The notes beneath the pieces were generated by a model. It worked only from the letters and a program-made list of their open reading frames with translations, searched no databases and had not been told where the DNA came from. The position numbers and the translations under genes are program-made. Below, piece after piece: positions 2,196 to 27,450 of a stretch of 29,713 nucleotides of DNA. Source of the stretch: Clostridia bacterium (lineage in GTDB: Bacteria > Bacillota > Clostridia > Christensenellales > Aristaeellaceae); assembly GCA_045617125.1 (NCBI GenBank), contig JAZLIA010000109.1, forward strand, positions 1 to 29,713, given 5' to 3'. Position 1 is the stretch's first letter; every line of letters starts with the position of its first letter.

Positions 2196-2238
2196 ATCGT
2201 TCCTCCCGCTATGGCTGATAAATTGATCTCCTGTCTGC

Positions 2239-2267
2239 ATTATAGGGGCTATCGTCTGCTGTGTCAA
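2239..2267 (-). promoter_or_regulatory. sigma-A-type promoter of the GH1 gene
   Basis: Minus strand: TTGACA (2262-2267), 17 nt, TATAAT (2239-2244). Both hexamers are consensus, about 40 nt upstream of the ATG. Confidence 0.7.
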
Positions 2268-2312
2268 TGCGGTTTATTCTGTCCGGCTGTTTACGACAGG
2301 AGCAATGTTAAC

Positions 2313-2368
2313 AGAATAAAACAGCCCCGTTCCGATTCACAAGTAAATGTGAACCGAAACGGGGCTGT
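2313..2368 (-). terminator. intrinsic terminator after glgP
   Basis: Minus strand: acagccccgtttcggttcac / gtgaatcggaacggggctgt form a roughly 20-bp stem (two G-U pairs), followed by TTTTATT. It lies 17 nt after the glgP stop. Confidence 0.85.
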
Positions 2369-2384
2369 ATCCTGTTTCATATTA

Positions 2385-4808
2385 TCAGATGTGCCAGATA
2401 AGGTCGTTGTATTCCCGGATCGTTCTGTCACTGGAGAAGATGCCGCTCTTTGCGGTGTTGATCACAGCCATACGCAGCCACTTGTCCCGGTCGGCATAAT
2501 CCCGGTCCACTCTGCGCTGGGCCATGGAATAGCTGCCGAAATCCTTGAGAACGAAGTAAGGATCGGAGAAGAGCAGGTTGTGATAAATATCCTGCAGCGT
2601 GGCGGGGGCATCGGGGAAGAGCGTGCCGTCGATGATTTGCATCAGAGCCCGTCTGAGCTCGCCATTCGTTTCAAAAATGTGCATCGGGCTGTAGTTGCCT
2701 TCTTTATAGAGGGCGGATACCGTGTCGGCCCGCATGCCGAAAATGTAGATGTTGTCGTCGCCTACAGCGTCATAGATTTCCACATTGGCGCCGTCCATGG
2801 TGCCGATCGTGACCGCGCCGTTCATCATGAACTTCATGTTGCCGGTGCCGCTGGCTTCCTTGCCGGCGGTGGAGAGCTGCTCGCTCAGGTCTGCCGCGGG
2901 GATCAGGAATTCCGCGCTGGAAACATCGTAATTCTCCAGGAACACCACCTTCAGCATACGTTTGGCCCGAGGAGTGCGGTCGATCAGCTTGCTGATCGAG
3001 ATGATCAGGCGGATGATCTGTTTGGCCATATAGTAGCTGGGGCTGGCTTTGGCGCCAAAGATGAAGGTGCGGGGAGTCATTTCGTAGTTGGGATCATCCA
3101 TGATGCGGTTGTAAAGCACCAGGATGTGCAGGGCATTGAGCATCTGCCGCTTGTATTCGTGAAGGCGCTTGGCCTGAACGTCAAACATGAAATCCGGGTC
3201 CACACTCATCTTCTGCCGCTGCATCAGCATGTTGCTGAAGGCTTCCTTGTTTTTACGCTTCACCGTGTCAAATTCAGCCCGGAAAGCGGCGTCATCGGCG
3301 TAGGGGGTAAGGTCGTTCAGATACTCCGGTTCCTTTATCCATCTGTCGCCGATGGTTTCGAGCAGAAGGTGTTTCAGGTTGCGGTTGGCTGCCATCAGCC
3401 AGCGGCGATGGGTGATGCCGTTGGTGATCGAGCTGAATTTTTCGGGCATGACGCTGTAATAATCCCGGAAGGTATCCTGCTTGAGGATCTCACCGTGCAG
3501 CTGGCTCACACCGTTCACGGAATGGCTCATTGCCACGCACAGGTTGGCCATGTGCACCATATCGTAGGCCGTGACCGCCATGCCCGCGATGCGGGGATCA
3601 CACCCGTTGTTGAAATGATGGGCCAGACGCTCGCATACCCGGCGGTTGATTTCCTGAAGGATCATATAGATGCGGGGCACCACGTTTTTCATCATTTCCT
3701 CGGGCCAGCGTTCCAGGGCTTCGCTCATTACGGTGTGATTGGTGTAGGCGATGGTGTTGCGTACGATCAGGCTGGCTTCATCCCAGCCGAGGCCTTCTTC
3801 ATCGATCAAAAGCCTCATCAGCTCGGGAATGGCAAGGCCGGGATGGGTGTCGTTGATATGAATGGCCATTTTTTCCGGGATCAGGCGGAAATTGTTGCCG
3901 AAACGGCGCTTAAAATCCTTCAGAGCATACTGCAGTGTGGCACTGGTGAAAAAGTAGTGCTGCTTGAGACGCAGCTCGCGGCCTTCGTAGTGATTGTCAT
4001 CGGGATAGAGCACGCGGCTGATCACGGTGGCCAGGTCTTCCTCCTGCATGCTGCGCAGATAATCTCCGCCGCCGAACTGCAGAAGGCCTGTGGGGTTGGG
4101 AGATTTTGCGCGCCATGTGCGCAGGGAATTGACGGTGTCGTTGTCATAGCCGATCACGGGCATATCATAAGGAACGGCCAGAACCGTGCGGTAATCCTTC
4201 AGCTCGAATACCTGACGGCCATCTCTCACATTTTCATCGACCCGGCCATAGAAGTGCACCTCCATCGTGTCCTCGGGAGCGGCCACTTCCCACACGTTGC
4301 CGTTATCCAGCCAGCTGTCCGGAACCTCGACCTGCTGGCCGTTGATGATCCTCTGGCGGAACAGGCCGTATTCATAGCGGATGGTGCAGCCCATAGCAGG
4401 CAGCCCCAGGGAGGCCAGACTGTCCATGAAGCAGGCGGCCAGACGGCCCAGGCCGCCGTTGCCCAGGGCGGGTTCGGGTTCTTCCGTGAGTACCTGCCGC
4501 CAGTTGATGCCCAGCTCCTTCAGGGCTTCCACGTAGTTCTTGCTGCTGCACAGGTTGAGCATGTTGCAATAAAGGCTGCGGCCGGTAAGAAATTCCACCG
4601 ACAGATAATAGAGACGCTTTCCGGTGTAGCTTTTGTCCTTTTCGCGGGCAGCGGTCCACTTGAGCATGATCTGATCCCTCACCGTGGTGGCTACGGCATT
4701 GTAGATCTGCTGTGGGGTAGCATCATTCAGGGTGCGGCCATTATAGCGCTGCAGCTTGCTCACGATGGAGGTCTTGATGGATTCTTTATCGAAATGAGTG
4801 GTGGGCAT
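2385..4808 (-). CDS. glgP: glycogen/maltodextrin phosphorylase (GT35)
   Basis: About 807 aa, with the pyridoxal-phosphate site block EASGTGNMKFMMNGA and GT35-like sequence throughout. I moved the start to the ATG at 4808 (MPTTHFDKESIK), which is preceded by GGAGGA. Confidence 0.92.
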   Translation of the reverse strand: MPTTHFDKESIKTSIVSKLQRYNGRTLNDATPQQIYNAVATTVRDQIMLKWTAAREKDKSYTGKRLYYLSVEFLTGRSLYCNMLNLCSSKNYVEALKELGINWRQVLTEEPEPALGNGGLGRLAACFMDSLASLGLPAMGCTIRYEYGLFRQRIINGQQVEVPDSWLDNGNVWEVAAPEDTMEVHFYGRVDENVRDGRQVFELKDYRTVLAVPYDMPVIGYDNDTVNSLRTWRAKSPNPTGLLQFGGGDYLRSMQEEDLATVISRVLYPDDNHYEGRELRLKQHYFFTSATLQYALKDFKRRFGNNFRLIPEKMAIHINDTHPGLAIPELMRLLIDEEGLGWDEASLIVRNTIAYTNHTVMSEALERWPEEMMKNVVPRIYMILQEINRRVCERLAHHFNNGCDPRIAGMAVTAYDMVHMANLCVAMSHSVNGVSQLHGEILKQDTFRDYYSVMPEKFSSITNGITHRRWLMAANRNLKHLLLETIGDRWIKEPEYLNDLTPYADDAAFRAEFDTVKRKNKEAFSNMLMQRQKMSVDPDFMFDVQAKRLHEYKRQMLNALHILVLYNRIMDDPNYEMTPRTFIFGAKASPSYYMAKQIIRLIISISKLIDRTPRAKRMLKVVFLENYDVSSAEFLIPAADLSEQLSTAGKEASGTGNMKFMMNGAVTIGTMDGANVEIYDAVGDDNIYIFGMRADTVSALYKEGNYSPMHIFETNGELRRALMQIIDGTLFPDAPATLQDIYHNLLFSDPYFVLKDFGSYSMAQRRVDRDYADRDKWLRMAVINTAKSGIFSSDRTIREYNDLIWHI

Positions 4809-4867
4809 GACGGAAATCCTCCGGATATAATGATAAATGAAGATGATGCCGAAAAAGCACCATTCAC

Positions 4868-4896
4868 ATTTTATCATATCAGTCGTTTTGTTTCAA
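4868..4896 (-). promoter_or_regulatory. sigma-A-type promoter of glgP
   Basis: Minus strand: TTGAAA (4891-4896), 17 nt, TGaTAAAAT (extended -10, hexamer 4868-4873). Confidence 0.6.
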
Positions 4897-4937
4897 TGTG
4901 CAGACCGGGCCAATTCTGCCCTCTTCAGCCTGTTTTG

Positions 4938-6503
4938 TCAGTAATCGTAACCGAAATAGAAGCCGGGGTCGTTCAGCTGATATTTTTGTCCGTTAAAGAA
5001 GAACATGGAGCCGTAGGCCGGGAGGAACTCTTCTTCAGGATCGGAACCGTTTTCCATTTCAAGGTTCCACCAGCTTTCAAAGTCCGGTACTCCCAGAGCT
5101 GCTTTGGGAGTGAACCCGGAAAGATCAGTGGAGCCGTACCCGGACGCGCGGCAATCCAGCTTTACGGCAAGCTCATGCTGAATATCGCCTTCCACGGTCA
5201 CCATAAACACGGCTTCGCCGTTTACGCCTGTAAGGCGGCCCTGCGTGTCGGAGGTGAAAACGAGATCAACCTTTTTAAATCGGATCTGCTGCATCAGATA
5301 CATCAGGCTCTGGAAGGGTGTGAAACGCTCTCTCGCTGCGCGCAATTGATCGGGCATGGTGATCACTTCCGCCATTCCGTCCGCATAAATGTGCACTCCC
5401 AGGGCGTCTGGAACCTCTCTGGCCGCGGCCAGGTATTTTTCACACATGCCGCTCAGCATTTCCAGATAGGCCTGTTCCAGATTGGGGTCGCTGATCGGTC
5501 CGAACACAGCATATTCTGCTTCCCGGCTCATTTCTTCGCCGGTCACTTCCTGATAATAGGCGCGGAAAGCGGCGTCACGGTTATCCCAGATAAGCGGGAT
5601 ATCGTTGGACAGATGCAGATATTCTTCCTCTGTGTCAAAGGTGACGATGCTGCCGTCCTTCAGGATCACGGAATACATTTTTCCGGTAAGCCAGGCCTGC
5701 TGCTCCGTTTCGCCGATCTTGTCCGTCACGGTGAACCAGGCTTCCATTTCGGGGGTGTTTTCCTGATCGCTTGTCTGGATGCGATCCCAGAAATACTCCG
5801 GAAGAGGTTGCCCGTACATTTGTTCGTAGGTGTTGGCAAACAGGATGTCATAATCCTCATAGATCACCTGGGGTACCGGCTCCCAGTCATAGCCGACAAA
5901 CATGCCGGGATTGCCGTAACCCAGCTCCCAGGAAACCGAAGCGAGCATTTCCGGCAGAAATACCTGGATCGCTTCCGGAATGTTTTCTTCATCGGCCTTC
6001 AGCTGAACGCGGAGGGAACCGTCTTTAGTGCTTTCACTGCTTACGATGCCGGGAGAAAGCAGACTGCCCACATTGGCGATCACGGTGCCCGCGGCAGTGA
6101 AGGCTTCTTTCAGAATGCTGCTGCGGATCACGCTGCGGGACGGATCCACGCCGCAGTCGCCGTAATATTCCGTATCAAAATCGTGAAACCAGGCCAGACC
6201 GTCCTTTCCCAGCACGGAGTAGCCGCTGTGCCTGGTTGAACCGTCATGCAGGGGGGTGAACACGTTGATGCTCAGAAGCGAATCCAGCCCATCCTTGCTG
6301 ATTTCGGCTTCCACCTGCTTGAAGCTTTTTCCGTCCAGAAAAAACTCCGCCTTGCCGGAGAGGGATACGTTTTCCGTGTCGAAGGCCAGGGCACAGCCCT
6401 GCTTAAAAAGGGTGGAAAGTTCGGTCTCCGCCAGGGCAAGAGAAAGCACCATGAGCAGGATCCCCAAAGTGGTGAAAAGGGAAATTCGTTTTGCTTTTTT
6501 CAT
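4938..6503 (-). CDS. secreted protein of unknown function (about 521 aa)
   Basis: I set the start at the ATG at 6503 (MKKAKRISLFTTLGILLMVLSLALA ETEL). This gives a basic n-region, a hydrophobic core and an ALA-E signal-peptidase I-like site, with a GAGG SD 6 nt upstream. The track start at 6743 would overlap the upstream peptidase gene. I recognise no domain. Confidence 0.7.
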   Translation of the reverse strand: MKKAKRISLFTTLGILLMVLSLALAETELSTLFKQGCALAFDTENVSLSGKAEFFLDGKSFKQVEAEISKDGLDSLLSINVFTPLHDGSTRHSGYSVLGKDGLAWFHDFDTEYYGDCGVDPSRSVIRSSILKEAFTAAGTVIANVGSLLSPGIVSSESTKDGSLRVQLKADEENIPEAIQVFLPEMLASVSWELGYGNPGMFVGYDWEPVPQVIYEDYDILFANTYEQMYGQPLPEYFWDRIQTSDQENTPEMEAWFTVTDKIGETEQQAWLTGKMYSVILKDGSIVTFDTEEEYLHLSNDIPLIWDNRDAAFRAYYQEVTGEEMSREAEYAVFGPISDPNLEQAYLEMLSGMCEKYLAAAREVPDALGVHIYADGMAEVITMPDQLRAARERFTPFQSLMYLMQQIRFKKVDLVFTSDTQGRLTGVNGEAVFMVTVEGDIQHELAVKLDCRASGYGSTDLSGFTPKAALGVPDFESWWNLEMENGSDPEEEFLPAYGSMFFFNGQKYQLNDPGFYFGYDY

Positions 6504-9191: not shown

Positions 9192-9219
9192 ATTTCACAA
9201 TTTGGCCATAATTGTATAG
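9192..9219 (+). promoter_or_regulatory. possible promoter of the ABC/Hsp70 gene string
   Basis: TTTCAC (9192-9197), 16 nt, TATAGT (9214-9219). The -35 match is weak. Confidence 0.3.
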
Positions 9220-9264
9220 TATGATATAGATGATCCGGTGAAATATCCGGGTCTGGGAGGGAAA

Positions 9265-11874
9265 ATGCTTAAGCTCAAAGGAATCAGAAAAGTGTATGAT
9301 GCGGGCGATACCCGCGTGGAAGCGCTCAAGGGCGTGGATCTGAACTTTCGCCGCAGCGAGTTCGTGGCTGTGCTGGGGCCTTCCGGCTGCGGAAAGACCA
9401 CTCTGCTCAACCTGATCGGCGGCCTGGACGGCTACACCGAGGGAGATCTGGTGATACGCGGCCGTTCCACCAAGGATTATAAGGACCGGGACTGGGACAG
9501 CTACCGCAACCATTCTGTCGGTTTTGTGTTCCAAAGCTATAACCTGATCCCGCACCAGACGGTGCTGCGCAATGTGGAGCTTGCTCTCACACTCAGCGGT
9601 GTGGGCAAGCGGGAGCGCCGCCGCCGGGCGGAGGAAGCCCTGAAAAACGTGGGTCTTGGCGATCAGCTTCATAAAAAACCCGCGCAGATGAGCGGCGGTC
9701 AGATGCAGCGTGTTGCCATTGCCAGGGCGCTGGTGAACGATCCGGAGATTTTGCTGGCAGATGAGCCTACCGGCGCACTGGACAGCGCAACCAGCGTGCA
9801 GGTGATGGACCTGCTGGCCCAGATCGCGAAAAACCGTCTGGTGATCATGGTGACGCACAACCCTGAACTGGCCGATCGGTATGCGAACCGCATTATCCGC
9901 CTTCTGGACGGAAAAGTGGTGGGAGACACCGCTCCCTATGACGGCAGGGATGAGGAAACGGAAAAGACAGGACGGGAAAAGAAGCCCTCGATGAGCTTCA
10001 CGACCGCTCTGGGCCTTTCTCTCAACAACCTGATGACCAAAAAGGCCAGGACCTTCCTTACCGCGTTTGCGGGATCGATCGGTATTATCGGCATTGCCCT
10101 GATCCTGGCGCTTTCCAACGGCGTGAACAACTATATTGATCGGGTGCAGGAGGACACGCTTTCCTCCTATCCGCTGAAGATCGAAGGCTCCACCGTGGAT
10201 ATGTCCGGCATGATGGAAGCCATGATGGGCGAGGTGAGCGAGAGCCGGGCGGAGCATGAGAATGACCGGGTGTATGCTAACAGCATCCTTACCCAGATGT
10301 TCTCCTCCATGATTTCCAATGTGACCGAAAATAACCTTGCCGCGTTCAAGGTCTACCTGGACAATGCCGACACGAAGGATCTGGTGAGCGACATCAAATA
10401 CGGTTATTCCACCCCGCTTACCCTGTATTACGACAGCCCGGATTACGGTATGGTGCAGGTGAACCCCTCCGCTGTGTTTTCCAACATGGGCATGCTCAGC
10501 GGCGCGGGTGTGGGCGCGATGAACAGCTTTTCTTCCTCCAGTCTCTTTTCTTCCGGAATGGAACAGATGGACGTGTGGGAGGAACTGATGGATAATGAAG
10601 CCCTGCTGAACCTTCAGTTTGACGTGGTGGCGGGGCGTATGCCGAAAAAATACGACGAAGCGGTGGTGATCGTCAATTCCCGCAACGAGGTCAGCGATTA
10701 TGCGCTGTATGCCCTGGGCCTGAGGGATCCTGATGAACCGGCCAGGATCATGCAGGAACTGGCGATGGGCAGGGAAATTCAGGCGGATACCTCTCTTTCC
10801 TACAGCTTCGATGAGATCCTGGGCCTCAACTTCACCTACATTCCCAGGGCGCTGACATATGAGCAGCAGGGAAATGTGTGGGTGGACCGCAGCGGCGATC
10901 CCGAATACCTGCGCAGTATGACGGAGCGGGGCCTGACGGTTCGCGTGGTTGGTATCATCCGCCCCTCTGATCAGGCTGTGGCGACCTCCACATCCTCCAG
11001 GGGCGGCATAGGTTACCTTTCCTCTTTGACCGAAATGGCGCTGGAAATGACGGCTCAGACCCCCGCGGTGAAGGCTCAGATGGAGCAGCCGGACCGTGAC
11101 ATTTTTACCGGCCTTCCCTTTGCCGGCAGCGAACCCGCGATGGATATGAGCACGTTTGACATAAGCACGCTTCCCGCGTCCCAGCAGGCGATGCTTCAGG
11201 GCATGAGCCCGGAGCAGATCCAGGCGCTGGCTGAAAAGTATATGAAGAGCAGTGTGTCGGAAAATACCTATAAGGATAATATGACCCTGCTTGGCATGAC
11301 CACGAGGGATAAGCCCTCCTCCATTTCCATTTATCCCAGAAGCTTTGAAGCCAAGGACACGATCATCAATATGATCGACCGGTATAATGAGCAGGCCGAA
11401 GAAAAAGACCGTATCCGCTACACCGATTATGTGGGCCTGCTGATGAGCTCGGTTACCACGATCATCAACGCGATCAGCTACATCCTCGTGGCCTTCGTTG
11501 CGATCTCGCTGGTGGTAAGCTCCATCATGATCGGCATCATCACTTACATCAGCGTACTCGAGCGCACCAAGGAGATCGGTATCCTGCGTGCCATCGGCGC
11601 CAGCAAGCGCGATATCAGCCGTGTGTTCAATGCGGAAACGCTGATCGAAGGCTTTGCTGCCGGGATCATCGGGATCGGTGTTACATTGCTGCTGGTGATC
11701 CTGGTCAACGTGATTTTGCTGGATCTTACCTCTATTGCCAACCTGGCAGGGCTGCCTGTGGAGGCTGCTGTCGCGCTCGTTGTGATCAGCATGGTGCTCA
11801 CCTTTATTGCCGGTCTCATCCCCAGCCGCATTGCCAGCAGGAAAGACCCTGTGATCGCGCTGAGAAGCGAGTGA
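9265..11874 (+). CDS. fused ABC ATPase / FtsX-family permease (MacB-type architecture)
   Basis: The N-terminal part has Walker [10 protein letters not shown], signature [14 protein letters not shown] and Walker [16 protein letters not shown] helix follows, then an extracytoplasmic domain of roughly 400 aa and a C-terminal FtsX-like 3-TM block ([19 protein letters not shown]). I set the start at the ATG at 9265 ([11 protein letters not shown]), after GGGAGGG. Confidence 0.88.
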
Positions 11875-11912
11875 CGGAAAATGACACCGATAACAGAAAC
11901 GGAGATAATCAC

Positions 11913-13709
11913 ATGGGAAAACTGATCGGTATTGACCTGGGAACCACCAACAGCTGCATGGCCGCTATGGAGGGCAGCGAAAAAATCATCATTCCCAACA
12001 GCGAGGGGGGGCGCACCACGCCTTCTGTGGTGGCCTTCACCAAGGAGGGAGAACGCCTGGTAGGCATGGCGGCCCGCAGACAGGCGGCTGTTCATCCGGA
12101 CAGGACGATCAGCTCCATCAAGCGTGATATGGGTACGGACCGGCGTGTTACGATCGACGGGCGGAAGTATACTCCCCAGGAGATCAGTGCGATGATCCTG
12201 CAAAAGCTGAAGATCGACGCGGAAGCGTATCTGGGTGAGCAGGTGACCGATGCGGTGATCACCGTGCCCGCGTACTTTACCGACAGTCAGCGCCAGGCTA
12301 CCAAGGACGCCGGACGCATTGCCGGGTTGAACGTGCAGCGCATCATCAACGAGCCTACTGCCGCGGCTCTGGCCTACGGGGTCGATAAGGAACAGGATCA
12401 GAAGGTGATGGTGTACGACCTGGGCGGCGGCACATTCGATGTGAGTGTGCTGGATATCAGCAGCGGTGTGATCCAGGTGCTGGCTACCGCGGGAAATAAC
12501 CGCCTGGGCGGAGACGATTTTGACGAATGCATCGTGCAGTATATTCTGGAGGCCTTCAAACGGGAGAACGGGGTGGATCTTAAAACCGATATGGCTGCGC
12601 TGCAGCGGGTGCGTGAGGCTGCTGAAAAAGCCAAGATCGAGCTTTCCGCCGCCACAGTGACCGAGATCAATCTTCCCTTTATCGCCCAAAAGCAGGGAAC
12701 CCCTCTGCATCTTTCCCTGTCGCTTACCCGGGCAAAATTCAACGAGCTTACCAGACATCTGGTGGATTCCACGCTGGGACCGGTGCAGCAGGCTCTGAGA
12801 GACAGCGGCCTGAGCGCCAGCCAGTTGGGCAAGGTGCTTCTGGTGGGCGGAAGCACCCGCATTCCCGCCGTGCAGGAGGAAGTGCGGAAACTGACCGGAA
12901 AGGAGCCCTTCAGAGGGATCAACCCGGATGAATGCGTCGCGATGGGCGCCTGTCTGCAGGGAGGCGTGCTTACCGGAAAGGTGGGCGGGCTGCTTTTGCT
13001 GGATGTGACCCCGCTTTCCCTTGGCATCGAAACCCTGGGCGGCGTCACCACCCGTTTGATCGAACGCAACACCACATTGCCTGTCAAGCGCAGTCAGGTG
13101 TTTACCACAGCAGCCAATTTCCAGACCTCGGTGGATATTCACGTTCTTCAGGGCGAAAGACAGATGGCTGACCAGAACAAAACTCTGGGCCGTTTCCGGC
13201 TCACCGGCATCAAACGGGCGCTGAGAGGCATTCCGCAGATCGAAGTGACCTTTGCGATCGACGCGAACGGCATCGTGAATGTTTCCGCCCGGGATTTGGG
13301 TACCGGACATGCTCAGGAGATCACCATCACGGCTTCCTCCAATCTGAGCCGGGAGGAGATCGACCGTGCGGTGCGGGAAGCCCAGCAGTATGCTGAGGAG
13401 GATGCCCGCAGGAAGGCCGAGGCAACTGCCAAAAACGATATGGAGCAGATGGAGTACCGGGCGTCGCTTCTCATGAAAAAGCTGGACAGGGGAGAAAAGC
13501 AGGAGCTGGCCGAGGCCCTTCAGCGTGTGAAGCACGCGAAAAAGAGCAAGGATGACGGCCGTCTGGCGGATGCCAACCGGGAGCTTCAGTATCTGCTGGA
13601 TCGACTGGAGGCCAAGTATGCCGCTCAGGGCGGGAACGACCCCGAAAACAGCGGCAGCGCGGATAAGAACAGCGAACAGGAGTTCTATGACGCGGATTTC
13701 AGCAATTGA
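11913..13709 (+). CDS. Hsp70 family chaperone, DnaK paralog in a non-canonical context
   Basis: Motifs [36 protein letters not shown], the linker [14 protein letters not shown] and a helical lid are all present. I set the start at the ATG at 11913 ([10 protein letters not shown]), after GGAGA and a 7-nt spacer. There is no hrcA or grpE nearby. Confidence 0.92.
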
Positions 13710-13742
13710 TCCGCCTGAAAGCACGCGGAAAGGGGAAACGAC

Positions 13743-14561
13743 ATGTTTGGTTTTGTGACGGCGGATGTGGAAAAGCTGTCTCAGGAGCAGAAGGAAGTTT
13801 ACCGTGCCTTTTACTGCGGAGTGTGCCGGTCGCTCAAGGCCCGTCACGGAACGGCATGCGAGCTTGCTCTTTCCTACGACATGGTGTTCCTTACGATGCT
13901 GCTGATGAGTGTATACGGGGAGGAGCCGGAGGAGCATTTTGCCCGCTGTGTGCCTCATCCCGGAAAGCGTCACCGGTTTTACAAAAGTGAACTGATCGAT
14001 TATGCGGCGGATATGGGACTTATTCTCATGTACTATAAGCTCATGGATGACTGGACGGATGATCGGGACCCTGTCCGTTATGCCGGTAGCCGTATGATCC
14101 TGAGAAAGGCACGGGGGGCTGAGAATAAATGGCCCCGGCAGGCGGAGAAAATAAAGCAGTGCCTGAAGGAGCTTTCCGAGGCTGAAAAACGGGATGAAAG
14201 ACAGATCGATGTGCCTGCCCGCATATTCGGGGCGCTGATGGGGGAGCTGTTCGTTTACAGGGAAGATGGGTTTTCCCCGCTTTTATGGGAAACAGGCAGA
14301 TGCCTTGGCATGTATGTGTATCTTTGCGACGCTGCGCTGGACTTGAAGGAGGATCTGAAAAAGAAGCACTATAATCCCTTCGCAGGCTACGGAAGCAGCG
14401 GTGCATACGAAAGCCTGTGTGCGGTAATGGGACAGTGCAGCGCGGTTTATAGGCAATTACCGGTTGACAAAAACAAGGCGATTCTGGATAATATTCTGTA
14501 TTCAGGCGTGTGGGGCCGATGGAATCTGGCCCACGCACCCCGAAAGCAGGGTAAAAAATGA
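13743..14561 (+). CDS. DUF5685-like protein (uncharacterised; Cys cluster plus Asp-rich motifs)
   Basis: The N-terminus MFGFV....YRAFYCGVCRSL....LSYDMVFL matches my recollection of the DUF5685 family. It also has CVPHP, DDWTDD and DLKEDLKKKHYNPF. The SD is AAGGGGA. Confidence 0.75.
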   Translation: MFGFVTADVEKLSQEQKEVYRAFYCGVCRSLKARHGTACELALSYDMVFLTMLLMSVYGEEPEEHFARCVPHPGKRHRFYKSELIDYAADMGLILMYYKLMDDWTDDRDPVRYAGSRMILRKARGAENKWPRQAEKIKQCLKELSEAEKRDERQIDVPARIFGALMGELFVYREDGFSPLLWETGRCLGMYVYLCDAALDLKEDLKKKHYNPFAGYGSSGAYESLCAVMGQCSAVYRQLPVDKNKAILDNILYSGVWGRWNLAHAPRKQGKK

Positions 14562-14616
14562 TCCGGGCAGATGTTCCGGCTGAAAAAGACCGGCAGCCCG
14601 AAGGAGGACCGGACCG

Positions 14617-15393
14617 TTGAGCGATCCGTATCAGGTGCTTGGTGTGTCCCGCACAGCCAGTGAAGAGGAGATCAAGCGCGCCTACAGGAATCTGGCTAAA
14701 AAATATCATCCCGATCTGAATCCAAATGATCCCACTGCAGCCAAGAAGATGGAAGAGATCAATGCTGCCTATGATGCGATCAAATCCGGCAAGGCTGACA
14801 GCTACAGCTACTCCGGCAATTCCGGAAGCGGGAACCCCTACGGCAATCCGTATGGCAACCCCTACGGCAACGGTGGGAACAGCGGCTATGGCGGATATCA
14901 GAACGGGTATCAGAATAGCGGTTATTCCGGAAACGACCGTTATGCCGATCAGGAGGGGGATCCCTTTGGCGGCTTTGGTCCTTTCGGCTTTGGCCCCTTT
15001 GGCTTTGGCGGCTATCAGAGACGGCCGCAGTATCAGCCATCGGGGAGGTACCGCGGCGCCTGGCAGTATGTTCAAAGCGGTTCCTATCCGGATGCCATGC
15101 GCATCCTGAACAGCATATCAGACCGGGATGCGGAATGGTATTACGTTGCCGCGCGGGCACAGCAGGGGATGGGCAATGAAGTGACCGCGCTCAATTACGC
15201 CCGCACTGCGAGCCAGATGGCGCCGGATAATGAGGTGTTCCGTCAGTTTATGCAGGAAATGACGGGAGAGGGTGAAAGCTACCGTCAGCAGCAGAGCGGA
15301 ATGGGATTTTCCGCGTCGGGGGTATCCCGGATCTGCATCGGTTTGTGCCTGGCCAACATGTGCTGCCGCTATGGCGGCTGTTTCTTCTGCTGA
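14617..15393 (+). CDS. J-domain protein with G/Y/N/F-rich linker, TPR-like region and Cys-rich C-terminal tail
   Basis: The start is a TTG at 14617, 8 nt after AAGGAGGA. The J domain reads DPYQVLGV...[15 protein letters not shown] (HPD motif). It has no CxxCxGxG zinc-finger domain. The C-terminus is [20 protein letters not shown]. Confidence 0.88.
14830..14871 (+). repeat. in-frame 12-nt tandem repeat encoding (GNPY)x3
   Basis: ggg aac ccc tac / ggc aat ccg tat / ggc aac ccc tac / ggc aac, inside the J-protein gene. Confidence 0.9.
14965..15012 (+). repeat. in-frame repeat encoding [16 protein letters not shown] (G/F region)
   Basis: Repeated ggc ttt ggY ccY ttY units, inside the J-protein gene. 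Confidence 0.85.
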
Positions 15394-15435
15394 CAGGAAA
15401 TACAGGCAGGGCAATGCAAAAAGAGGAGGTTCATA

Positions 15436-15876
15436 ATGGGACAGAAATTCAGGATGTGGCTGATCCGCGTGATGGAGGGCCGCTATGGCACCAGAGGAAT
15501 AGATCCGTTCAATCGTTTTCTGATCATTGCTTATTTTGCGCTTACGGTTTTGAATCTGATCCTTGCCGGAGTGCTTGGAGGCACGCTTCTGCTGCCCACG
15601 GTGCTGAGTTGGGCAGCGTTCATCCTGTTTCTGTTTCGTACTTTCAGCCGCAACATTCCAAAGCGTGAGATGGAAAATGAAAAATACCTCGCTGTTTCCC
15701 AGAATGTGAAGCGTTTTTTCCGCCGTCAGGTGAACCGGGTGAAGGAAGTTAAGACCCATCGCTACCGTAAATGTACTCACTGCAAAGCGGTGCTGCGCCT
15801 GCCGCGCAAAAAGGGCACCCTGAAGGTGAACTGCCCCCGGTGCAAGCAGGAATTTTCGGTCAAAATATGGTTCTGA
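15436..15876 (+). CDS. membrane protein with C-terminal zinc ribbon
   Basis: The SD is AGAGGAGG, 7 nt upstream. Two hydrophobic helices are present (FLIIAYFALTVLNLILAGVLGG, LLPTVLSWAAFILFLF), followed by a basic linker and then CTHC...(16 aa)...CPRC. Confidence 0.8.
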   Translation: MGQKFRMWLIRVMEGRYGTRGIDPFNRFLIIAYFALTVLNLILAGVLGGTLLLPTVLSWAAFILFLFRTFSRNIPKREMENEKYLAVSQNVKRFFRRQVNRVKEVKTHRYRKCTHCKAVLRLPRKKGTLKVNCPRCKQEFSVKIWF

Positions 15877-15880
15877 TGAT

Positions 15881-15922
15881 ACAGTAAAAGGAGCCGCATG
15901 AAGGCTCCTTTACTGTATTTTA
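15881..15922 (+). terminator. intrinsic terminator closing the Hsp70 operon
   Basis: acagtaaaaggagcc / ggctcctttactgt form a 14-bp stem with one bulged A and a 7-nt loop, followed by ATTTTA. It starts 5 nt after the stop codon. Confidence 0.7.
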
Positions 15923-15993
15923 GGCTGTAGCCCTTGGAAAGCAATGGTCGTATAAACAAATGGACTGGCAGGATCAGGATCGGAGGTATCGTT

Positions 15994-16320
15994 ATGAAAG
16001 AAAAGACGGTCAAAGCATTAAAACTGGATGACAGCTTGCTTGATATGGTTCATGGAGGAAATGGTGATGCGATGCTTGATATGAATTGCATCCTCGAAGG
16101 GGGCAAAGATGCGATGCCTGACATGAATAGCAACCTCGCATCGGTTTCCTCGGTGCCATCCGTGATATTATTATATCAGACACATGAGGGGGATTGCTTC
16201 TCTGTTCTGGCGGAAAAATACAATACGTCAGTGGCGATGATTCTAAGCTTGAACCATATTGCAGATCCAGACCATGTTGAATCCGGTAGATGGATCCGGA
16301 TCCCGTGTAATCAAAAATAA
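15994..16320 (+). CDS. small LysM-domain protein with a double-glycine-type N-terminal leader
   Basis: The ATG at 15994 is preceded by GGAGG and a 7-nt spacer. The N-terminus MKEKTVKALKLDDSLLDMVHGG has no hydrophobic Sec core. The C-terminal segment YQTHEGDCFSVLAEKYNTSVAMILSLNHIADPDHVESGRWIRIP fits the LysM consensus (Y.V..GD.L..IA.KY..S...L...N.......I..GQ.L.IP). Confidence 0.75.
   Translation: MKEKTVKALKLDDSLLDMVHGGNGDAMLDMNCILEGGKDAMPDMNSNLASVSSVPSVILLYQTHEGDCFSVLAEKYNTSVAMILSLNHIADPDHVESGRWIRIPCNQK
16066..16138 (+). repeat. imperfect 42-nt in-frame tandem duplication inside the LysM gene
   Basis: gatgcgatgcttgatatgaattgcatcctcg (16066-16096) versus gatgcgatgcctgacatgaatagcaacctcg (16108-16138) match at 27/31 positions. 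A third partial copy, cttgatatg, lies at 16039-16047. Confidence 0.85.
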
Positions 16321-25278: not shown

Positions 25279-27447
25279 TCAACGGCTGTTTTGTTCGCTT
25301 TCCTGTGACTTGACGAGCTGTTCAAACAGACCATGCTGGTTCATTAATTGGCTGTAGGTTCCTTCTTCTACGATCCCGCCGTTTTCCATCACGATGATCC
25401 GATCACAATCTTTGATGGTAGATAGACGATGCGCGACCATGATGACGGTCGCTTTGGTCTTGCAAATCTCCTCCATCACCGCCGATTGGGTGTTGTTATC
25501 CAGAGCGGATGTCGCCTCATCCAGAATCAGCAGCGCAGGTTTTCGGACAAACGCTCTTGCCAGCAGCATACACTGCTTCTGACCGCCGGAAAACCCGCCG
25601 GACATCGTTTCGGATATGATGGAATCAAGCCCGTCCGGAAGCGCGGAGATCACATCGGCGATCTGTGCCTTTTTCAGTGCTTCCCAAACCTCTTCATCGG
25701 AGATGTCATCATTCCCTAAGGTGATGTTGTAACGTACAGAGCCCGGCATCAGCGAGCTGTACTGTGCCAGAAAGCCAATGCGCCTGTTCACGAAACGCAT
25801 ATTCAGGGTCTCGATCGGATGATCGTCGAGATATACCGTACCTGAAAGCGGCTTGTTGATCCCGACGATCATGCTCAGCAACGTACTTTTGCCGCAGCCG
25901 CTCCTGCCTGTGATCCCGATGATTTCGCCGGGCGTGGCCGAGAAATTGATGCCTTCGATGCTGAACGAATCAGAAGGATTGTAGGAAAAATTGATATTTT
26001 CAAGTTTGACGCTGCCACGAATATTTCTGAGGATCTTCTGATCCGGGCTGATCTCGCTTTCCGCCTGGAACAGCTTCGAGATGTGCCGGACATATTCCGA
26101 TGCTCTGAAAGACGCGGAAAACAAATCGGTGGCTTCCAGTGCCGCGGCGGACATGATGGCATAGCTCGCGCTGAACGCGATGAAACCAGCCGCGGAAACA
26201 TGGCAGTACCAGGCTGTGATATAGAAGACCGCGACCGAAATGGCCGGCACAAAGATGCCTTTCAACTTGACGATGAGCGGAAGGTCAAAAGAATATTCAA
26301 GCCGTCTTTTGAAGATCGAAGCCCATTTGACATAGATCCGCTTTTCCGCGCCAGCGGTCTTGATCTTCTGGATGCCCTGCAAAGTGGAGAAAATGTTGTT
26401 GCGAAGCTCGGAATCCGTTTCCATTTCCATTTTCAGGATCTTCGCGTAAATTCTCTCCGATATTCCGATCCAGGACAGCTGAAGCGCCATCAACAGAAGC
26501 CCTGCCAGTGCCAGAGGACCGGACATGTGGATCATCTGCGGAATATTGACCAGTGAAAAAGCCAGGGTGACCGATGTGCAGAAAACCATTTCCACAATGA
26601 TCTCGGCAAGCGTTCTGGCGTGACGGACATAGGTGGCGACACGTCCGCTCTTGTTCTTCCGGAAAAAGGAGACCGGAAGGCACAACACTCTCGCGATCAC
26701 CGAGATCTGGGACTGTTTCGTGATCCTGAGCCTGTACAGATCCACCGTGTATTTTTTGACAGCGTTCAGGAAGCAGCGGATCAGCCCGGCAGCCGTATAG
26801 ATAAAGATCGCGGAAACGATCAGCGGGATCGCGGTGCTGCCGGCCGGAACATATTCCTTCAGAACGGTATGGCTGACAGAGGGCGTTGCCAGGTTCAGCC
26901 CCGCCACCAGCGCAGACAGAATACAGATCACAGCCCAGAATTTGCGCGGAATGATCTTCAGAATATATCTCAGAAAACCCGGAAAACCGTCGACTTTCCA
27001 GTCCAAAGGCCGATAGACCGCGTAACCGGCAGCGCCGAGCCTGACTTTGCCTGTCAGATGGCTTTTTTTGTTTTGCCCGGGGCGCAGAAAGCTGTGACCG
27101 ATTACCGCGTTTGTGATCAGGATCGGAGAACCGTTGTCCAGAAAGCCGATGATGAAATCGGTGCTGTCTTTCCATCCGGGATCCGTCATATCGATCTTTT
27201 CATACAGGATCCCGCAGGGTTCAAAGGTATATTCCAGCATTTCATCCGGATCATCCGTATCATATTCGTTGCCGGGAGTCAATCCATAGGCGTTCAGAAT
27301 ATACCGGAGGATATACCGAAGTCCTTCCGTCCTGTCACAGGCTTCCTGATCGGGAGACAGTGTGCCGAACAGGGCGGCATCGGCTTTCTGTACTGCTTCT
27401 TCGTCCTGGGCGGCCCGCCTTTTGATCGTTTCTGTATAAAGTCCCAT
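25279..27447 (-). CDS. ABC exporter (TMD-NBD half transporter) with a ~160-aa N-terminal accessory domain
   Basis: A six-TM exporter domain is followed by Walker A GRSGCGKST, signature FSGGQKQ, Walker B LILDEATSALD and H-loop VAHRLST. The N-terminal domain has no Cys/His peptidase motifs. The start lies 3 nt after the upstream stop and has a GGGAG SD. Confidence 0.88.
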   Translation of the reverse strand: MGLYTETIKRRAAQDEEAVQKADAALFGTLSPDQEACDRTEGLRYILRYILNAYGLTPGNEYDTDDPDEMLEYTFEPCGILYEKIDMTDPGWKDSTDFIIGFLDNGSPILITNAVIGHSFLRPGQNKKSHLTGKVRLGAAGYAVYRPLDWKVDGFPGFLRYILKIIPRKFWAVICILSALVAGLNLATPSVSHTVLKEYVPAGSTAIPLIVSAIFIYTAAGLIRCFLNAVKKYTVDLYRLRITKQSQISVIARVLCLPVSFFRKNKSGRVATYVRHARTLAEIIVEMVFCTSVTLAFSLVNIPQMIHMSGPLALAGLLLMALQLSWIGISERIYAKILKMEMETDSELRNNIFSTLQGIQKIKTAGAEKRIYVKWASIFKRRLEYSFDLPLIVKLKGIFVPAISVAVFYITAWYCHVSAAGFIAFSASYAIMSAAALEATDLFSASFRASEYVRHISKLFQAESEISPDQKILRNIRGSVKLENINFSYNPSDSFSIEGINFSATPGEIIGITGRSGCGKSTLLSMIVGINKPLSGTVYLDDHPIETLNMRFVNRRIGFLAQYSSLMPGSVRYNITLGNDDISDEEVWEALKKAQIADVISALPDGLDSIISETMSGGFSGGQKQCMLLARAFVRKPALLILDEATSALDNNTQSAVMEEICKTKATVIMVAHRLSTIKDCDRIIVMENGGIVEEGTYSQLMNQHGLFEQLVKSQESEQNSR

Positions 27448-27450
27448 TTT

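Follow-up and report, generated by a model that had tools for sequence, protein, structure and literature searches.

The locus lies in a 29.7-kb window, the whole stretch of Clostridia bacterium DNA that was analysed, and comprises four genes on the + strand. They encode a full-length Hsp70 of the DnaK type (598 amino acids, 11913..13709), a DUF5685 protein (272 amino acids, 13743..14561), a class C J-protein (258 amino acids with a TTG start, 14617..15393) and a small zinc-ribbon membrane protein with two transmembrane (TM) helices (146 amino acids, 15436..15876). All four open reading frames were verified at these coordinates, with spacers of 33, 55 and 42 nt in order and a Shine-Dalgarno sequence of GGAG/GGAGG type 6-10 nt before each gene. 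An intrinsic terminator closes the unit (15878..15921, + strand); it consists of a 17-bp stem with one bulge followed by UUUU, and its predicted fold (MFE -24.5 kcal/mol, z = -6.7) was equalled by 0 of 200 shuffled sequences. A scan of the + strand found no terminator-like matches in the intergenic spacers, the in-gene ones being located at 12967-12987, 14260-14277, 15362-15378 and 15600-15620, and the total (10 versus 7.1 expected) was near chance. The picture drawn by the first-pass annotation, of four closely spaced genes with their own ribosome-binding sites, uninterrupted spacers and a terminator after the last gene, was therefore confirmed.

The dnaK start is preceded, at a distance of 38 nt, by the stop codon (11874) of a gene encoding a MacB-like fusion of an ABC ATPase and an FtsX-type permease (9265..11874, + strand; Pfam ABC_tran and FtsX), and the terminator scan found no terminator-like site between the two. 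This gene is possibly the first of the operon, which could then start at a sigma-70-like promoter candidate upstream of it (TTCACA-17-TAGTAT, 9194..9222, + strand; 9/12, a consensus match only). It is nevertheless outside the conserved core of the module: a same-strand ABC gene immediately 5' of dnaK was found only at loci L001 and L003, and locus L029 carries a 52%-identical copy on the opposite strand. Another promoter candidate (TTGACA-17-GATAAT, 14464..14492, + strand; 11/12, likewise a consensus match only) lies within the 3' end of the DUF5685 gene. As the annotation had noted, the usual neighbours of a housekeeping dnaK are missing, with hrcA, grpE and a full-length dnaJ absent from the 29.7-kb window; a CIRCE element was searched for and not found.

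The genes encoding DUF5685 and the J-protein adjoined each other on the same strand at 80 of 80 genome loci (GTDB species), and a reciprocal search using the C-terminal half of the J-protein as a query placed DUF5685 directly 5' of the J gene at 57 of 58 metagenome loci. This pairing persists at only ~30% identity, in homologs on Pusillibacter and Subdoligranulum replicons, and the stop codon of DUF5685 and the start codon of the J gene overlap at 101 of 143 loci (~70%), with 39 others having the two genes ≤20 nt apart. The zinc-ribbon gene adjoins the pair, following the J gene or preceding DUF5685, at 33 of the 59 genome loci with adequate flanks (~56%) and at 35 of 35 wide metagenome loci, and the DnaK gene does so at 9 of the 59 (~15%) and 12 of the 35, respectively. 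Wherever DnaK is present (9/9 genome and 12/12 metagenome loci), the zinc-ribbon gene is present too. The order DnaK-DUF5685-J-zinc-ribbon recurs in Clostridium frigoris, Sedimentibacter, Peptococcaceae, Eubacteriales mix99 and Sediminispirochaeta smaragdinae, as well as on many metagenome contigs, and some variants of the module have a small GrpE of their own (locus L091).

The obligate, invariant core of the module is thus the DUF5685 and J-protein gene pair, DnaK being an optional accessory and the zinc-ribbon membrane protein a frequent one. The first-pass annotation had presented the locus as a four-gene Hsp70 module; the recurrence of the gene order bears out the four-gene unit, while the emphasis on Hsp70 has to be given up, since adjacency holds throughout for the core pair and fails for DnaK and zinc-ribbon at many loci. 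The cysteine-tailed J-protein/DUF5685 module is real, widespread and uncharacterised, and we found no published description of it in the literature.

The DnaK of the locus scored 738 bits against HSP70 (PF00012) and passed the NCBIfam DnaK equivalog models, PRK00290 with 859 against 648 and TIGR02350, narrowly, with 836 against 822.6. It is indeed a full-length Hsp70 with intact ATPase motifs and linker, retaining every E. coli DnaK catalytic, J-interaction and linker residue checked and most pocket residues (K70, E171, D194, T199, D201, R167, N170, T173, LLLD, F426 and V436 among those kept), with the arch residue M404 replaced by L. It belongs to a group of DnaKs of 565-604 amino acids encoded beside DUF5685/J or J(TM)-GrpE, in which the Spirochaete cluster DnaK is 74-78% identical to the Clostridial cluster DnaKs. 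Two DnaKs are listed for S. smaragdinae, which carries the same cluster, and a tabulation of paired DnaKs includes C. frigoris (PMC11019930 Data Sets S1/S2). Because S. smaragdinae has two DnaKs, close relatives lie outside hrcA-grpE-dnaK-dnaJ in 8 of the 8 cases with context examined, and no CIRCE element was found, the data support the annotated view that this DnaK is a paralog, distinct from the general heat-shock copy, a status that rests on related genomes.

The J-protein matched the Pfam DnaJ J-domain only, and the DnaJ_CXXCXGXG and DnaJ_C domains were absent in the domain search, in agreement with the earlier description of a J domain lacking the zinc-finger domain. The J-domain (PF00226, residues 3-56, 14623..14784, + strand) harbors H31-P32-D33, a motif invariant in its homologs (alignment A2), and its Foldseek matches include 5nro_B, 2ctw and 5vso. 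A disordered linker rich in Gly, Tyr, Phe and Asn follows (residues 64-134, 14806..15018, + strand; pLDDT below 50), which differs in length between homologs in the same alignment, and then a TPR-like helical domain (15043..15264, + strand; pLDDT 94-97), which matched the TPR domains of Fis1, MamA, PcrH and SPAG1 in Foldseek and gave weak TPR/Fis1_TPR_C Pfam matches in 21 of 26 homologs. The protein ends in a cysteine string (15331..15390, + strand) with 7 Cys in 20 residues. Among 131 unique homologs the median Cys count was 6 within the C-terminal 30 residues and 0 in the rest of the protein, with Cys as the final residue in 91, CC in 31 and Cys among the last three residues in 111; C240 is invariant in alignment A2. 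Most tails are strongly hydrophobic, with L/I/F/M/A between the cysteines, yet their median 19-residue KD value of 1.45 is under a normal TM score, and such a tail would therefore need help to anchor. In a subset (loci L056, L067, L071 and L095 among them) Asp or Glu lie between the cysteines, and by their sequence these tails look more like metal-binding than membrane-inserting segments.

The DUF5685 protein (PF18937, 280 bits) yielded a confident AF2 model (pLDDT 92.1, pTM 0.90), and the best 50 Foldseek matches in the PDB were all isoprenoid synthases or prenyltransferases, including MoeN5 (top), Ord1, FPPS, OPPS and GGPPS, with TM scores of 0.5-0.62 and modest E-values (3e-3). Sequence searches linked DUF5685 significantly neither to PF00348 nor to terpene-synthase families. 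Across 248 sequences of 30-92% identity, the first Asp-rich motif (L-D102-D103-W-x-D106-D107, 14046..14063, + strand), located at the FARM/DDxxD position at the C-terminal end of helix 83-107, has D102 and D106 invariant (248/248), D103 in 225 and D/E107 in 242. The second acidic motif (D196-A-x-x-D200-x-x-x-D204, 14328..14354, + strand) occupies the SARM or NSE/DTE position and reads DAxxD rather than DDxxD; D196, D200 and D204, and also E148, are 100% conserved. In the model, both motifs sit at helix ends with three helices between them, as FARM and SARM do. The sole local match of DUF5685 to E. coli IspB and to IspA in hhalign fell on their SARM, and in hmmsearch the second motif aligned to NDLASYERD of the class I diterpene synthase Sat1646, each of these alignments being non-significant. 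Given the modelled fold and the invariant Asp motifs, we place DUF5685 in the isoprenoid-synthase superfamily, as a divergent trans-isoprenyl-diphosphate-synthase/class I terpenoid-synthase fold and a putative Mg2+-diphosphate-dependent alkyl (prenyl) transferase.

DUF5685 further carries a candidate Zn site (13815..13958, + strand; from conservation and the AF2 model), formed by C25-x2-C28 in helix 1 and, at the tip of a beta hairpin (residues 63-81), C69-x2-H72. All 248 sequences have C25, C28 and C69, and 239 of the 248 have H72; the site presumably binds metal (Zn) and may be purely structural. At the C-terminal end, an invariant hydrophobic NILYSGVW is followed by a Lys/Arg-rich tail. The zinc-ribbon membrane protein is composed of a conserved N-terminal GRYGxD, two TM helices (~28-67), SRNxxKRxxEN and a C113xxC...C133xxC zinc ribbon on the cytoplasmic side. 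Of the two genes that the first-pass annotation had left without a function, that of DUF5685 can now be described by its fold, and the last gene still has only sub-threshold zinc-ribbon matches. In sister systems that use a DnaK of the same group, the J-protein has a true TM tail and DUF5685 is absent nearby. These TM-tailed J-proteins, together with the hydrophobicity of the Cys tail and the presence of a 2-TM partner, make a membrane-directed role plausible; this part of the proposed Hsp70/J-protein machine is supported to that extent, and its centring on Hsp70 is not, DnaK being optional.

The reading that we favour, at a probability of about 0.4, is that DUF5685 S-prenylates the cysteine tail of the J-protein and anchors this DnaK-recruiting protein at the membrane. 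On this view the locus is a single representative of a module that is widespread and horizontally mobile, built on a translationally coupled gene pair. DUF5685 would bind an isoprenyl diphosphate via Mg2+ held by D102/D106 and D196/D200/D204 and pass the prenyl group to thiols of the cysteine string; the lipidated tail would fix the J-protein to the membrane on its cytoplasmic side, where it may dock on the zinc-ribbon membrane protein. There, the HPD J-domain would recruit DnaK and trigger its ATPase, using the module's own paralog if present and otherwise the housekeeping DnaK, on membrane-proximal clients chosen by the TPR-like domain. The catalytic activity, the Cys tail as its acceptor, the anchoring and the identity of the clients we infer from several lines of evidence: the obligate DUF5685-J adjacency with its start/stop overlap, for which comQ/comX offers an adjacent-gene precedent; the isoprenoid-synthase fold, with invariant Asp motifs and three weak alignments on SARM or NSE/DTE; and the clustering of Cys in the J tail, together with the TM-tailed sister J-proteins that do without DUF5685. 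Against it stand the lack of a significant sequence link to PF00348 or terpene synthases, the modest Foldseek scores and the DAxxD motif, as well as the Asp/Glu-containing tails and a CxxC...CxxH site that is possibly structural.

To our knowledge, protein S-prenylation is not known in bacteria, which counts against this reading. Eukaryotes offer established precedents for it: membrane-anchored J-domain co-chaperones are held by a palmitoylated cysteine string (CSP/DNAJC5) or a C-terminal CaaX farnesyl (DNAJA/Ydj1), and Rab -CC/-CXC ends are geranylgeranylated. These co-chaperones resemble the module's J-protein in having an N-terminal J-domain and a Cys-rich hydrophobic segment, but in the bacterial protein the string forms the very C-terminus, after a TPR-like domain, and its lipidation is hypothetical. 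The eukaryotic modifying enzymes, DHHC palmitoyltransferases or an alpha/beta-barrel farnesyltransferase, are unrelated to DUF5685.

Closer in fold are ComQ, PalQ, ChrPC and Ord1, the last serving as structural reference for two peptide prenyltransferases, ComQ and PalQ (PMC13290415), which share the isoprenoid-synthase fold and Asp-rich motifs with DUF5685. The prenyltransferase/substrate pair comQ and comX is adjacent on one strand, within the four adjacent same-strand genes of comQXPA (PMC4008528), so that in this case the enzyme gene adjoins that of the polypeptide which it modifies near the C-terminus. DUF5685 differs from these enzymes in lacking significant sequence similarity to them, in its DAxxDxxxD motif and in its extra CxxC...CxxH hairpin, and its putative acceptor is not a secreted peptide but a Cys string carried by a chaperone cofactor of 200-300 amino acids. 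Moreover, and this too weighs against S-prenylation, the trans-IDS-like peptide prenyltransferases characterised so far all act on Trp and not on Cys, and use a conserved Gln before SARM (PMC13290415) where DUF5685 has an invariant Tyr.

A second reading, which we consider rather unlikely, holds that a specialised J-protein/DnaK pair serves DUF5685 as its private client or regulates it, in the way that HscB/HscA serve IscU: DUF5685 would be bound by the TPR-like domain and remodelled by DnaK, for example in the release of a hydrophobic isoprenoid product or as an on/off enzyme switch at the membrane, and the Cys tail would merely tether the complex. Obligate adjacency and translational coupling equally fit a stable or recurrent complex, TPR-like folds bind proteins or peptides, and HscA/HscB/IscU is an accepted example of an Hsp70 system with a single client (PMC8215388), in which a specialised Hsp70/J-protein pair is encoded together with its client, a protein that binds metal via Cys/His ligands. 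Non-canonical class I terpene synthases (for example BalTS of class IB; classes ID-IF), whose Asp motifs are non-standard and which sequence HMMs miss, are moreover active enzymes by themselves (PMC11234867). Such synthases and MoeN5 share the class I/trans-IDS-like helical fold of DUF5685; they differ in acting on small-molecule isoprenoids without a J-protein partner, and DUF5685's LDDWxDD and DAxxDxxxD motifs are not theirs. NILYSGVW with the Lys/Arg-rich tail resembles a DnaK-binding site, a resemblance only, but is modelled as a folded helix at high pLDDT and not exposed. Product-pathway genes around the module are not conserved, the module has no isc genes, the DUF5685 fold is unrelated to IscU, and the J-protein lacks the HscB C-domain (TIGR00714, 17.7 bits against a cut-off of 46.75). 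This reading also leaves unexplained why a cysteine string is conserved in, and restricted to, DUF5685-paired J-proteins.

A third reading, improbable in our view, is that the J cysteine string and the DUF5685 CxxC...CxxH serve as ligands for metal ions or for an Fe-S cluster, and that the Asp motifs hold metal and not a diphosphate substrate, in a membrane-proximal system for metal handling or metal/thiol stress. Conserved Cys clusters in both core proteins and in the accessory membrane protein would fit, as would J tails rich in Cys and Asp/Glu/Gly, such as CGTGNLCCDLWCADSLCECMGGDLCSCI and GCSCCDMCTAMMCMDMCCGCGRGGC, and the Cd2+ sensitivity of E. coli on loss of HscC or DjlB/DjlC (PMC8215388). 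However, most tails are hydrophobic, without the Gly/Pro/polar spacing typical of metal-binding loops, the DUF5685 fold and motif positions agree with diphosphate-ionising enzymes, and neither metal transporter nor Fe-S assembly genes are conserved nearby. That dnaK is simply the organism's single housekeeping copy, relocated among genes forming no functional unit, would suit its equivalog scores and retained functional residues but is largely refuted, and very improbable, given the identical gene order across phyla, the 74-78% identity between Spirochaete and Clostridial cluster DnaKs, the two DnaKs of S. smaragdinae, the lack of grpE, hrcA and CIRCE in the window, and the zinc-ribbon gene that accompanies DnaK at each of the 9 genome and 12 metagenome loci with a DnaK.

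Among bacterial chaperone systems, the S-prenylated anchor that we favour recalls HscC, the third Hsp70 system of E. coli, whose partners DjlB/DjlC are tail-anchored in the cytoplasmic membrane; there too an Hsp70 paralog gene lies beside class C J-protein genes, the clients are presumed membrane-proximal and heat-shock regulation is absent (PMC8215388). The present module differs in that its Hsp70 scores as DnaK, not HscC, and is optional, in that a TPR-like domain and a cysteine string replace the TM helix of the J-protein, and in that the obligate partner is a protein of isoprenoid-synthase fold. A J-protein with a Cys tail, encoded beside a prenyltransferase-like enzyme, hints at a lipid-anchored chaperone system of a kind undescribed in bacteria.

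The four genes lie on the forward strand and encode a DnaK (11913-13709, 598 aa), a DUF5685 protein (13743-14561, 272 aa), a J-protein (14617-15393, 258 aa, with a TTG start) and a membrane/zinc-ribbon protein (15436-15876, 146 aa), separated by spacers of 33, 55 and 42 nt, with a GGAG or GGAGG Shine-Dalgarno site ahead of every gene. Just 3′ of the last stop codon we found a terminator hairpin, consisting of a 17-bp stem with a single bulge followed by UUUU, with a free energy of -24.5 kcal/mol (z = -6.7; none of 200 shuffled sequences folded as well). Scanning the window revealed no terminator-like sites in the intergenic spacers of the unit and a few such matches within genes, their total being near chance (10 versus 7.1 expected). 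The first-pass annotation, which had described four same-strand genes with terminator-free spacers and a terminator after the last stop, was therefore accurate in its ORFs, spacers, Shine-Dalgarno sites and, as judged by Pfam and NCBIfam, protein domains.

Several other features of this region were recorded. A sigma-70-type match (TTGACA-17-GATAAT, 11/12) is located at 14464-14492 (+), within the 3′-terminal part of the DUF5685 gene and just before the 55-nt DUF5685-J spacer, which is unusually long among the module loci, and so the window copy may have gained a candidate internal promoter from which the J and zinc-ribbon genes could be transcribed. Directly 5′ of dnaK, ending 38 nt upstream of it, lies a MacB-like gene encoding a fused ABC ATPase/FtsX permease (9265-11874, +), and such a gene precedes the module dnaK also in two Clostridium-type loci, where the encoded proteins (L001, 4864-6114, and L003, about 4950-6224) are devoid of the large extracytoplasmic loop; this protein may be a lineage-specific client or a co-transcribed partner of the module. 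The gene that directly follows the module terminator (15934-16320, +) encodes a small protein ending in a LysM domain, an adjacency that is not conserved elsewhere, and two tandem ABC exporters (ABC_membrane and ABC_tran domains) occupy 25279-29628 (-), the second of which (27451-29628, -) carries an N-terminal peptidase C39 domain, a hallmark of bacteriocin/RiPP leader-cleaving exporters. Two very long ORFs without a family match, 1596-6239 (+, 1547 aa) and 11544-13973 (-, 809 aa), were rejected as artefacts of a GC content of roughly 55-60%, lying antisense to a glycogen phosphorylase gene (2385-4877, -) and to dnaK, respectively. Since longest-ORF calling picked such antisense ORFs, genes in GC-rich loci were chosen by homology weighting.

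To define which genes constitute the module, we scanned the DUF5685 alignment against one genome per GTDB species, which yielded at least 588 loci, and inspected the 80 best matches. In all 80, a J-protein gene was located directly downstream of DUF5685 on the same strand, and a J-protein with a cysteine-rich tail still followed DUF5685 homologs of only ~30% identity, found on large Pusillibacter and Subdoligranulum replicons. A reciprocal test, in which metagenome contigs were searched with the C-terminal half of the J-protein alone (best 80 of 209 loci inspected), identified DUF5685 directly upstream of the J gene in 57 of the 58 loci having at least 900 nt of upstream sequence, the sole exception being a 2-kb contig showing a zinc-ribbon gene and then a J gene; a protein-database search with the same half gave no candidates. 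Moreover, of 143 loci, 101 showed an overlap of the DUF5685 stop with the J start and 39 more had the two within 20 nt of each other, these coordinates being approximate, as gene boundaries outside the window were derived from alignments. The zinc-ribbon membrane gene adjoined this pair in 33 of the 59 loci with enough flanking sequence (downstream of the J gene in 20 and upstream of DUF5685 in 13), and DnaK adjoined it in only nine of the 59, all nine of which also contained the zinc-ribbon gene. Thus, of the four-gene co-occurrence initially proposed, the DUF5685/J pair stood and the constancy of the other two members did not: given that the pairing holds in the genome, distant-homolog and reciprocal metagenome samples, the obligate core of the module is DUF5685 and the J-protein, with the zinc-ribbon protein as a frequent third member and DnaK as an occasional fourth. 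YihY, Asp23, DAK2 and RecG, all recurrent neighbours, were excluded as members, their recurrence reflecting lineage-specific synteny.

The module is widespread, occurring in at least 588 GTDB species, including many Oscillospiraceae and Lachnospiraceae from human and animal guts, and DUF5685 itself forms about 2,000 clusters when proteins are grouped at 90% identity. The fullest form was observed in locus L091 (2560-6767), which encodes a zinc-ribbon membrane protein, DUF5685, a cysteine-string J-protein, GrpE (146 aa) and DnaK (588 aa) and is complete in itself as an Hsp70 system, nucleotide-exchange factor included. In Pusillibacter faecalis, the DUF5685-J pair (L094, 1-849) lies on the 504-kb replicon pMM59_01, a ‘plasmid’ that is probably a chromid, among the housekeeping genes cdaA, gmk, rpoZ and priA, with ispD and ispF ~4 kb upstream of the pair. 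The latter two genes belong to the MEP pathway for isoprenoid precursors, and their closeness could be coincidental synteny. DUF5685 homologs of 33-35% identity were also found on two unannotated human-faecal contigs labelled ‘Bacteriophage sp.’ (MT835850.1, 822-1661; MT835652.1, 15937-16758), which could represent mis-binned bacterial DNA or phage-carried copies.

Having established the core pair, we turned to characterize DUF5685. The window protein matched PF18937 with 279.6 bits (gathering threshold 26.7) over model positions 1-270 of 272, and its AlphaFold2 model, built from a 23-sequence alignment (mean pLDDT 92.1, pTM 0.90), was all-helical except for one beta hairpin (residues 63-81). 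When the model was compared to the PDB using Foldseek, the top 50 matches were isoprenoid-synthase-fold proteins only, among them MoeN5, Ord1 and FPP, GGPP, hexaprenyl and octaprenyl diphosphate synthases, with a probability of about 1.0, a TM-score of up to 0.62 (OPPS) and modest E-values (3e-3 to 6e-2). None of 23 DUF5685 members matched a polyprenyl-synthase or terpene-synthase Pfam family (e.g., PF00348) even at E ≤ 10, hmmsearch of the PDB with DUF5685 yielded nothing significant, and the fetched loci contained no homologs of polyprenyl synthases.

Across 248 unique DUF5685 sequences, which are 30-92% identical to the window protein, the invariant residues were G3, Y24, C25, G26, C28, C69, D102, D106, E148, G189, Y193, D196, D200, D204, N211 and G255, and H72 was found in 96%; the CxxC...CxxH residues look like a putative zinc site. 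A first Asp-rich motif, D102-D103-W-x-D106-D107 (D102 and D106 in 248/248), closes helix 83-107, whose equivalence to helix D, the helix of the first motif in this fold, was judged by helix order and without superposition. A second, invariant acidic motif, D196-A-x-x-D200-x-x-x-D204, a candidate variant of the second metal-binding motif expected on helix H, closes helix 178-199, three helices after the first. In the model, this spacing matches that of the first and second Asp-rich motifs (FARM/SARM) of trans-IDS enzymes, or of DDxxD and the second metal motif (NSE/DTE) of class I terpene synthases. Local matches, all non-significant and used solely to check motif register, fell on the second motif as well: hhalign to E. 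coli IspB and IspA placed ‘GxxLGRFIYxMDAxxD’ on ‘GxxLGxaFQxxDDxxD’, and in the PDB hmmsearch it was paired with NDLASYERD of Sat1646, a class I diterpene synthase (PMC9814573). Enzymatic activity has been demonstrated for non-canonical class I terpene synthases whose Asp motifs deviate from the standard (PMC11234867). Taken together, the predicted fold and the conservation pattern lead us to place DUF5685, on structural grounds, in the isoprenoid-synthase superfamily, and a metal-diphosphate is very probably the substrate that it binds. Its nearest enzymatic analogues are ComQ, PalQ, Ord1 and MoeN5, and it falls within none of their families. The trans-IDS-like peptide prenyltransferases are defined by a Gln before SARM and a Trp acceptor (PMC13290415), and in ComQ, PalQ and ChrPC this Gln lies just before SARM and the Trp acceptor resides in the adjacent gene product, whereas DUF5685 has the invariant Y193 at the equivalent residue and the tail of its partner J-protein contains no conserved Trp, its conserved nucleophiles being cysteines.

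The window J-protein matched PF00226 with 74.8 bits, and its H31-P32-D33 motif was invariant in the J-protein alignment. It matched neither PF00684 nor PF01556 and scored 75.7 bits against TIGR02349 (cut-off 377), and since it lacks the CxxCxGxG zinc-finger and the DnaJ C-terminal beta-sandwich domains, we assign it by domain content to class C, in keeping with its initial description as a J-protein without that zinc finger. A single-sequence structural model, confident for the J-domain and a TPR-like domain only, together with the alignment, predicted a disordered Gly/Tyr/Phe/Asn-rich linker (residues 64-134) followed by a helical domain (residues 143-216, pLDDT 94-97), whose fold neighbours are the TPRs of Fis1, MamA, PcrH and SPAG1 and for which 21 of 26 homologs gave weak TPR/Fis1 Pfam matches. 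The C-terminal part comprises a GGxxYxQ...FGxP motif and then a hydrophobic cysteine string: among 131 unique homologs, the last 30 residues contain a median of six cysteines (range 0-10, the low-Cys tails being outliers with C-terminal extensions), and the rest of the protein a median of none. The protein ends with Cys in 91 of the 131 and with CC in 31, and a Cys is found within the last three residues in 111. The best 19-residue hydropathy of these tails has a median of 1.45, which is below that of a typical TM helix. The zinc-ribbon protein had sub-threshold zinc-ribbon matches only and no curated-family match in Pfam or NCBIfam; its conserved features run from fMxGRYGxD at the N terminus through two TM helices and the juxtamembrane motif fRxxSRNxxKRxxEN to a CPxC-x16-CPxC ribbon.

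A sister system was observed in two Oscillospiraceae-like contigs (L085, 4937-7815; L090, 3977-6791), consisting of a J-protein, a small GrpE (about 145 aa) and a DnaK from the short-DnaK group to which that of the module also belongs. Its J-proteins (178-200 aa) harbor a J-domain, a Q/Y-rich linker, one C-terminal TM helix and a Tyr-rich end, with no TPR domain, no cysteine string and no DUF5685 nearby, and the triad looks like another uncharacterised membrane-anchored Hsp70 system. A cysteine string was confined to J-proteins having DUF5685 as their partner; in the sister triads a plain TM anchor takes its place.

The best explanation of the module as a whole, to which we tentatively assign a probability of about 40%, is that DUF5685 prenylates the cysteine string of the J-protein, yielding a membrane-anchored J-protein that recruits DnaK. 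DUF5685 would alkylate thiols in its partner's cysteine string, the lipidated tail would attach the J-protein to the inner membrane face, the zinc-ribbon protein perhaps taking part, and the J-domain would then recruit DnaK to clients picked by the TPR-like domain. This reading is favoured by the restriction of the cysteine string to DUF5685-paired J-proteins and by the eukaryotic precedent, as the J-proteins CSP and Ydj1 are anchored by lipidated cysteines. It is further favoured by the strict coupling of the DUF5685 and J genes, resembling the adjacent comQ and comX genes of the comQXPA locus (PMC4008528), and by trans-IDS-like enzymes being an established bacterial class of peptide prenyltransferases, whose structural reference, Ord1 (PMC13290415), is among the Foldseek matches. 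Against it, the known enzymes of this class target Trp via the Gln that is replaced by Tyr in DUF5685, the fold statistics are moderate, and some J tails resemble metal-binding sequences. We also know of no protein S-prenylation in bacteria. The stricter claim, that DUF5685 is the founding trans-IDS-fold bacterial protein S-prenyltransferase, multiply prenylating the cysteine string and tethering a dedicated Hsp70 cycle to the membrane, is less probable, and a categorically new protein-lipidation system is a realistic possibility, though not the likelier one; we rate it as a combination of known kinds, a specialised Hsp70/J system and a trans-IDS-like enzyme. A rival reading, less probable than prenylation of the tail, is that DUF5685 is a dedicated client of the J-protein/DnaK pair. 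Still less probable is a metal- or redox-handling system, which the metal-binding appearance of some tails would fit; Asp or Glu occurs in a minority of the 131 tails.

We also examined whether the DnaK component could be the general chaperone. The window DnaK is itself present in the protein database, on an NCBI contig of 29,714 nt, so the window is a complete MAG contig. The protein is full-length (NBD-linker-SBD-lid; PF00012, 738 bits, model positions 2-595) and scores above the NCBIfam equivalog cut-offs, by a wide margin for PRK00290 (859.5 versus 648) and narrowly for TIGR02350 (836.1 versus 822.55). All checked catalytic, J-contact and linker residues are kept (E. coli K70, E171, D194, T199, D201, R167, N170 and T173; linker LLLLD versus 389-VLLLD-393 in E. 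coli), and the pocket mostly so (M404 is replaced by L). Its neighbours are the ABC/FtsX gene and DUF5685 and not those of the canonical hrcA-grpE-dnaK-dnaJ arrangement, with no grpE or hrcA in the 29.7-kb window. Control of the module by HrcA/CIRCE was rejected, as no CIRCE element was found in the window within three mismatches, nor close to a module in any of 175 loci. Among the closest relatives of the window DnaK, the gene context of eight was looked up: five were linked to DUF5685/J (L081 of S. smaragdinae, L083/L084 of Eubacteriales mix99, L091 and L092), two belonged to the J-GrpE-DnaK triads (L085 and L090), one was solitary (L089) and none was in an hrcA-grpE-dnaK-dnaJ context. A published survey lists two DnaKs for S. 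smaragdinae DSM 11293 (GCA_000143985, the source assembly of L081; PMC11019930 Data Set S1) and includes this species and Clostridium frigoris, the species of L001 (a link at species level), in its table of DnaK pairs (Data Set S2). A neighbour-joining tree of the DnaKs, midpoint-rooted and without canonical references, cannot alone prove paralogy for that reason, and it is the gene contexts and published counts that support the module DnaK as a paralog; the early proposal that it is not the sole genomic dnaK was borne out in related genomes, S. smaragdinae carrying two DnaKs and the same cluster. That the window gene is a relocated housekeeping dnaK, as its equivalog scores might suggest, is in light of these contexts and counts highly improbable. 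A role in defence was rejected as well, PADLOC giving no family for any of the four proteins. The module has moved between phyla, into Spirochaetes, and the 74-78% identity that the Spirochaete cluster DnaK shares with several of the Clostridial ones (71% with the window DnaK) indicates that it was transferred together with its DnaK.

The module was absent from surveys of bacterial Hsp70s, J-proteins and DnaK duplications, and our literature searches found no study of it, as had been supposed at the outset, and a single paper on DUF5685, merely listing it in C. difficile R20291. Few specialised Hsp70 systems are known from bacteria, and our literature searches turned up none from Clostridia. 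In HscA/HscB and HscC/DjlC, J-proteins steer the generic Hsp70 ATPase to particular tasks. By function only, the module comes nearest to HscC of E. coli and its tail-anchored partners DjlB and DjlC (PMC8215388), yet the Hsp70 of that system belongs to the HscC subfamily, whereas that of the module scores as a DnaK equivalog and matched no HscC model, and the J-proteins of that system have a TM tail anchor in place of a cysteine string that does not form a standard TM helix. Architecturally, the module J-protein is closest to the eukaryotic cysteine string protein (CSP/DNAJC5), without being a member of that family.

To summarize, these data provide DUF5685 with a structural and mechanistic hypothesis, that of a metal-dependent, prenyl-diphosphate-type enzyme, and describe a bacterial ‘cysteine-string’ J-protein. 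If the tail is indeed lipidated, protein S-prenylation would extend to bacteria, with DUF5685 forming a Cys-directed branch of the trans-IDS-like prenyltransferases, enzymes currently sought as biocatalysts, and the module would be the first system native to bacteria for prenylating protein cysteines, as well as a counterpart of the lipid-anchored eukaryotic J-proteins CSP/DNAJC5 and Ydj1. Even without lipidation, the strict coupling of enzyme and J-protein would offer a tractable, single-partner Hsp70 system.
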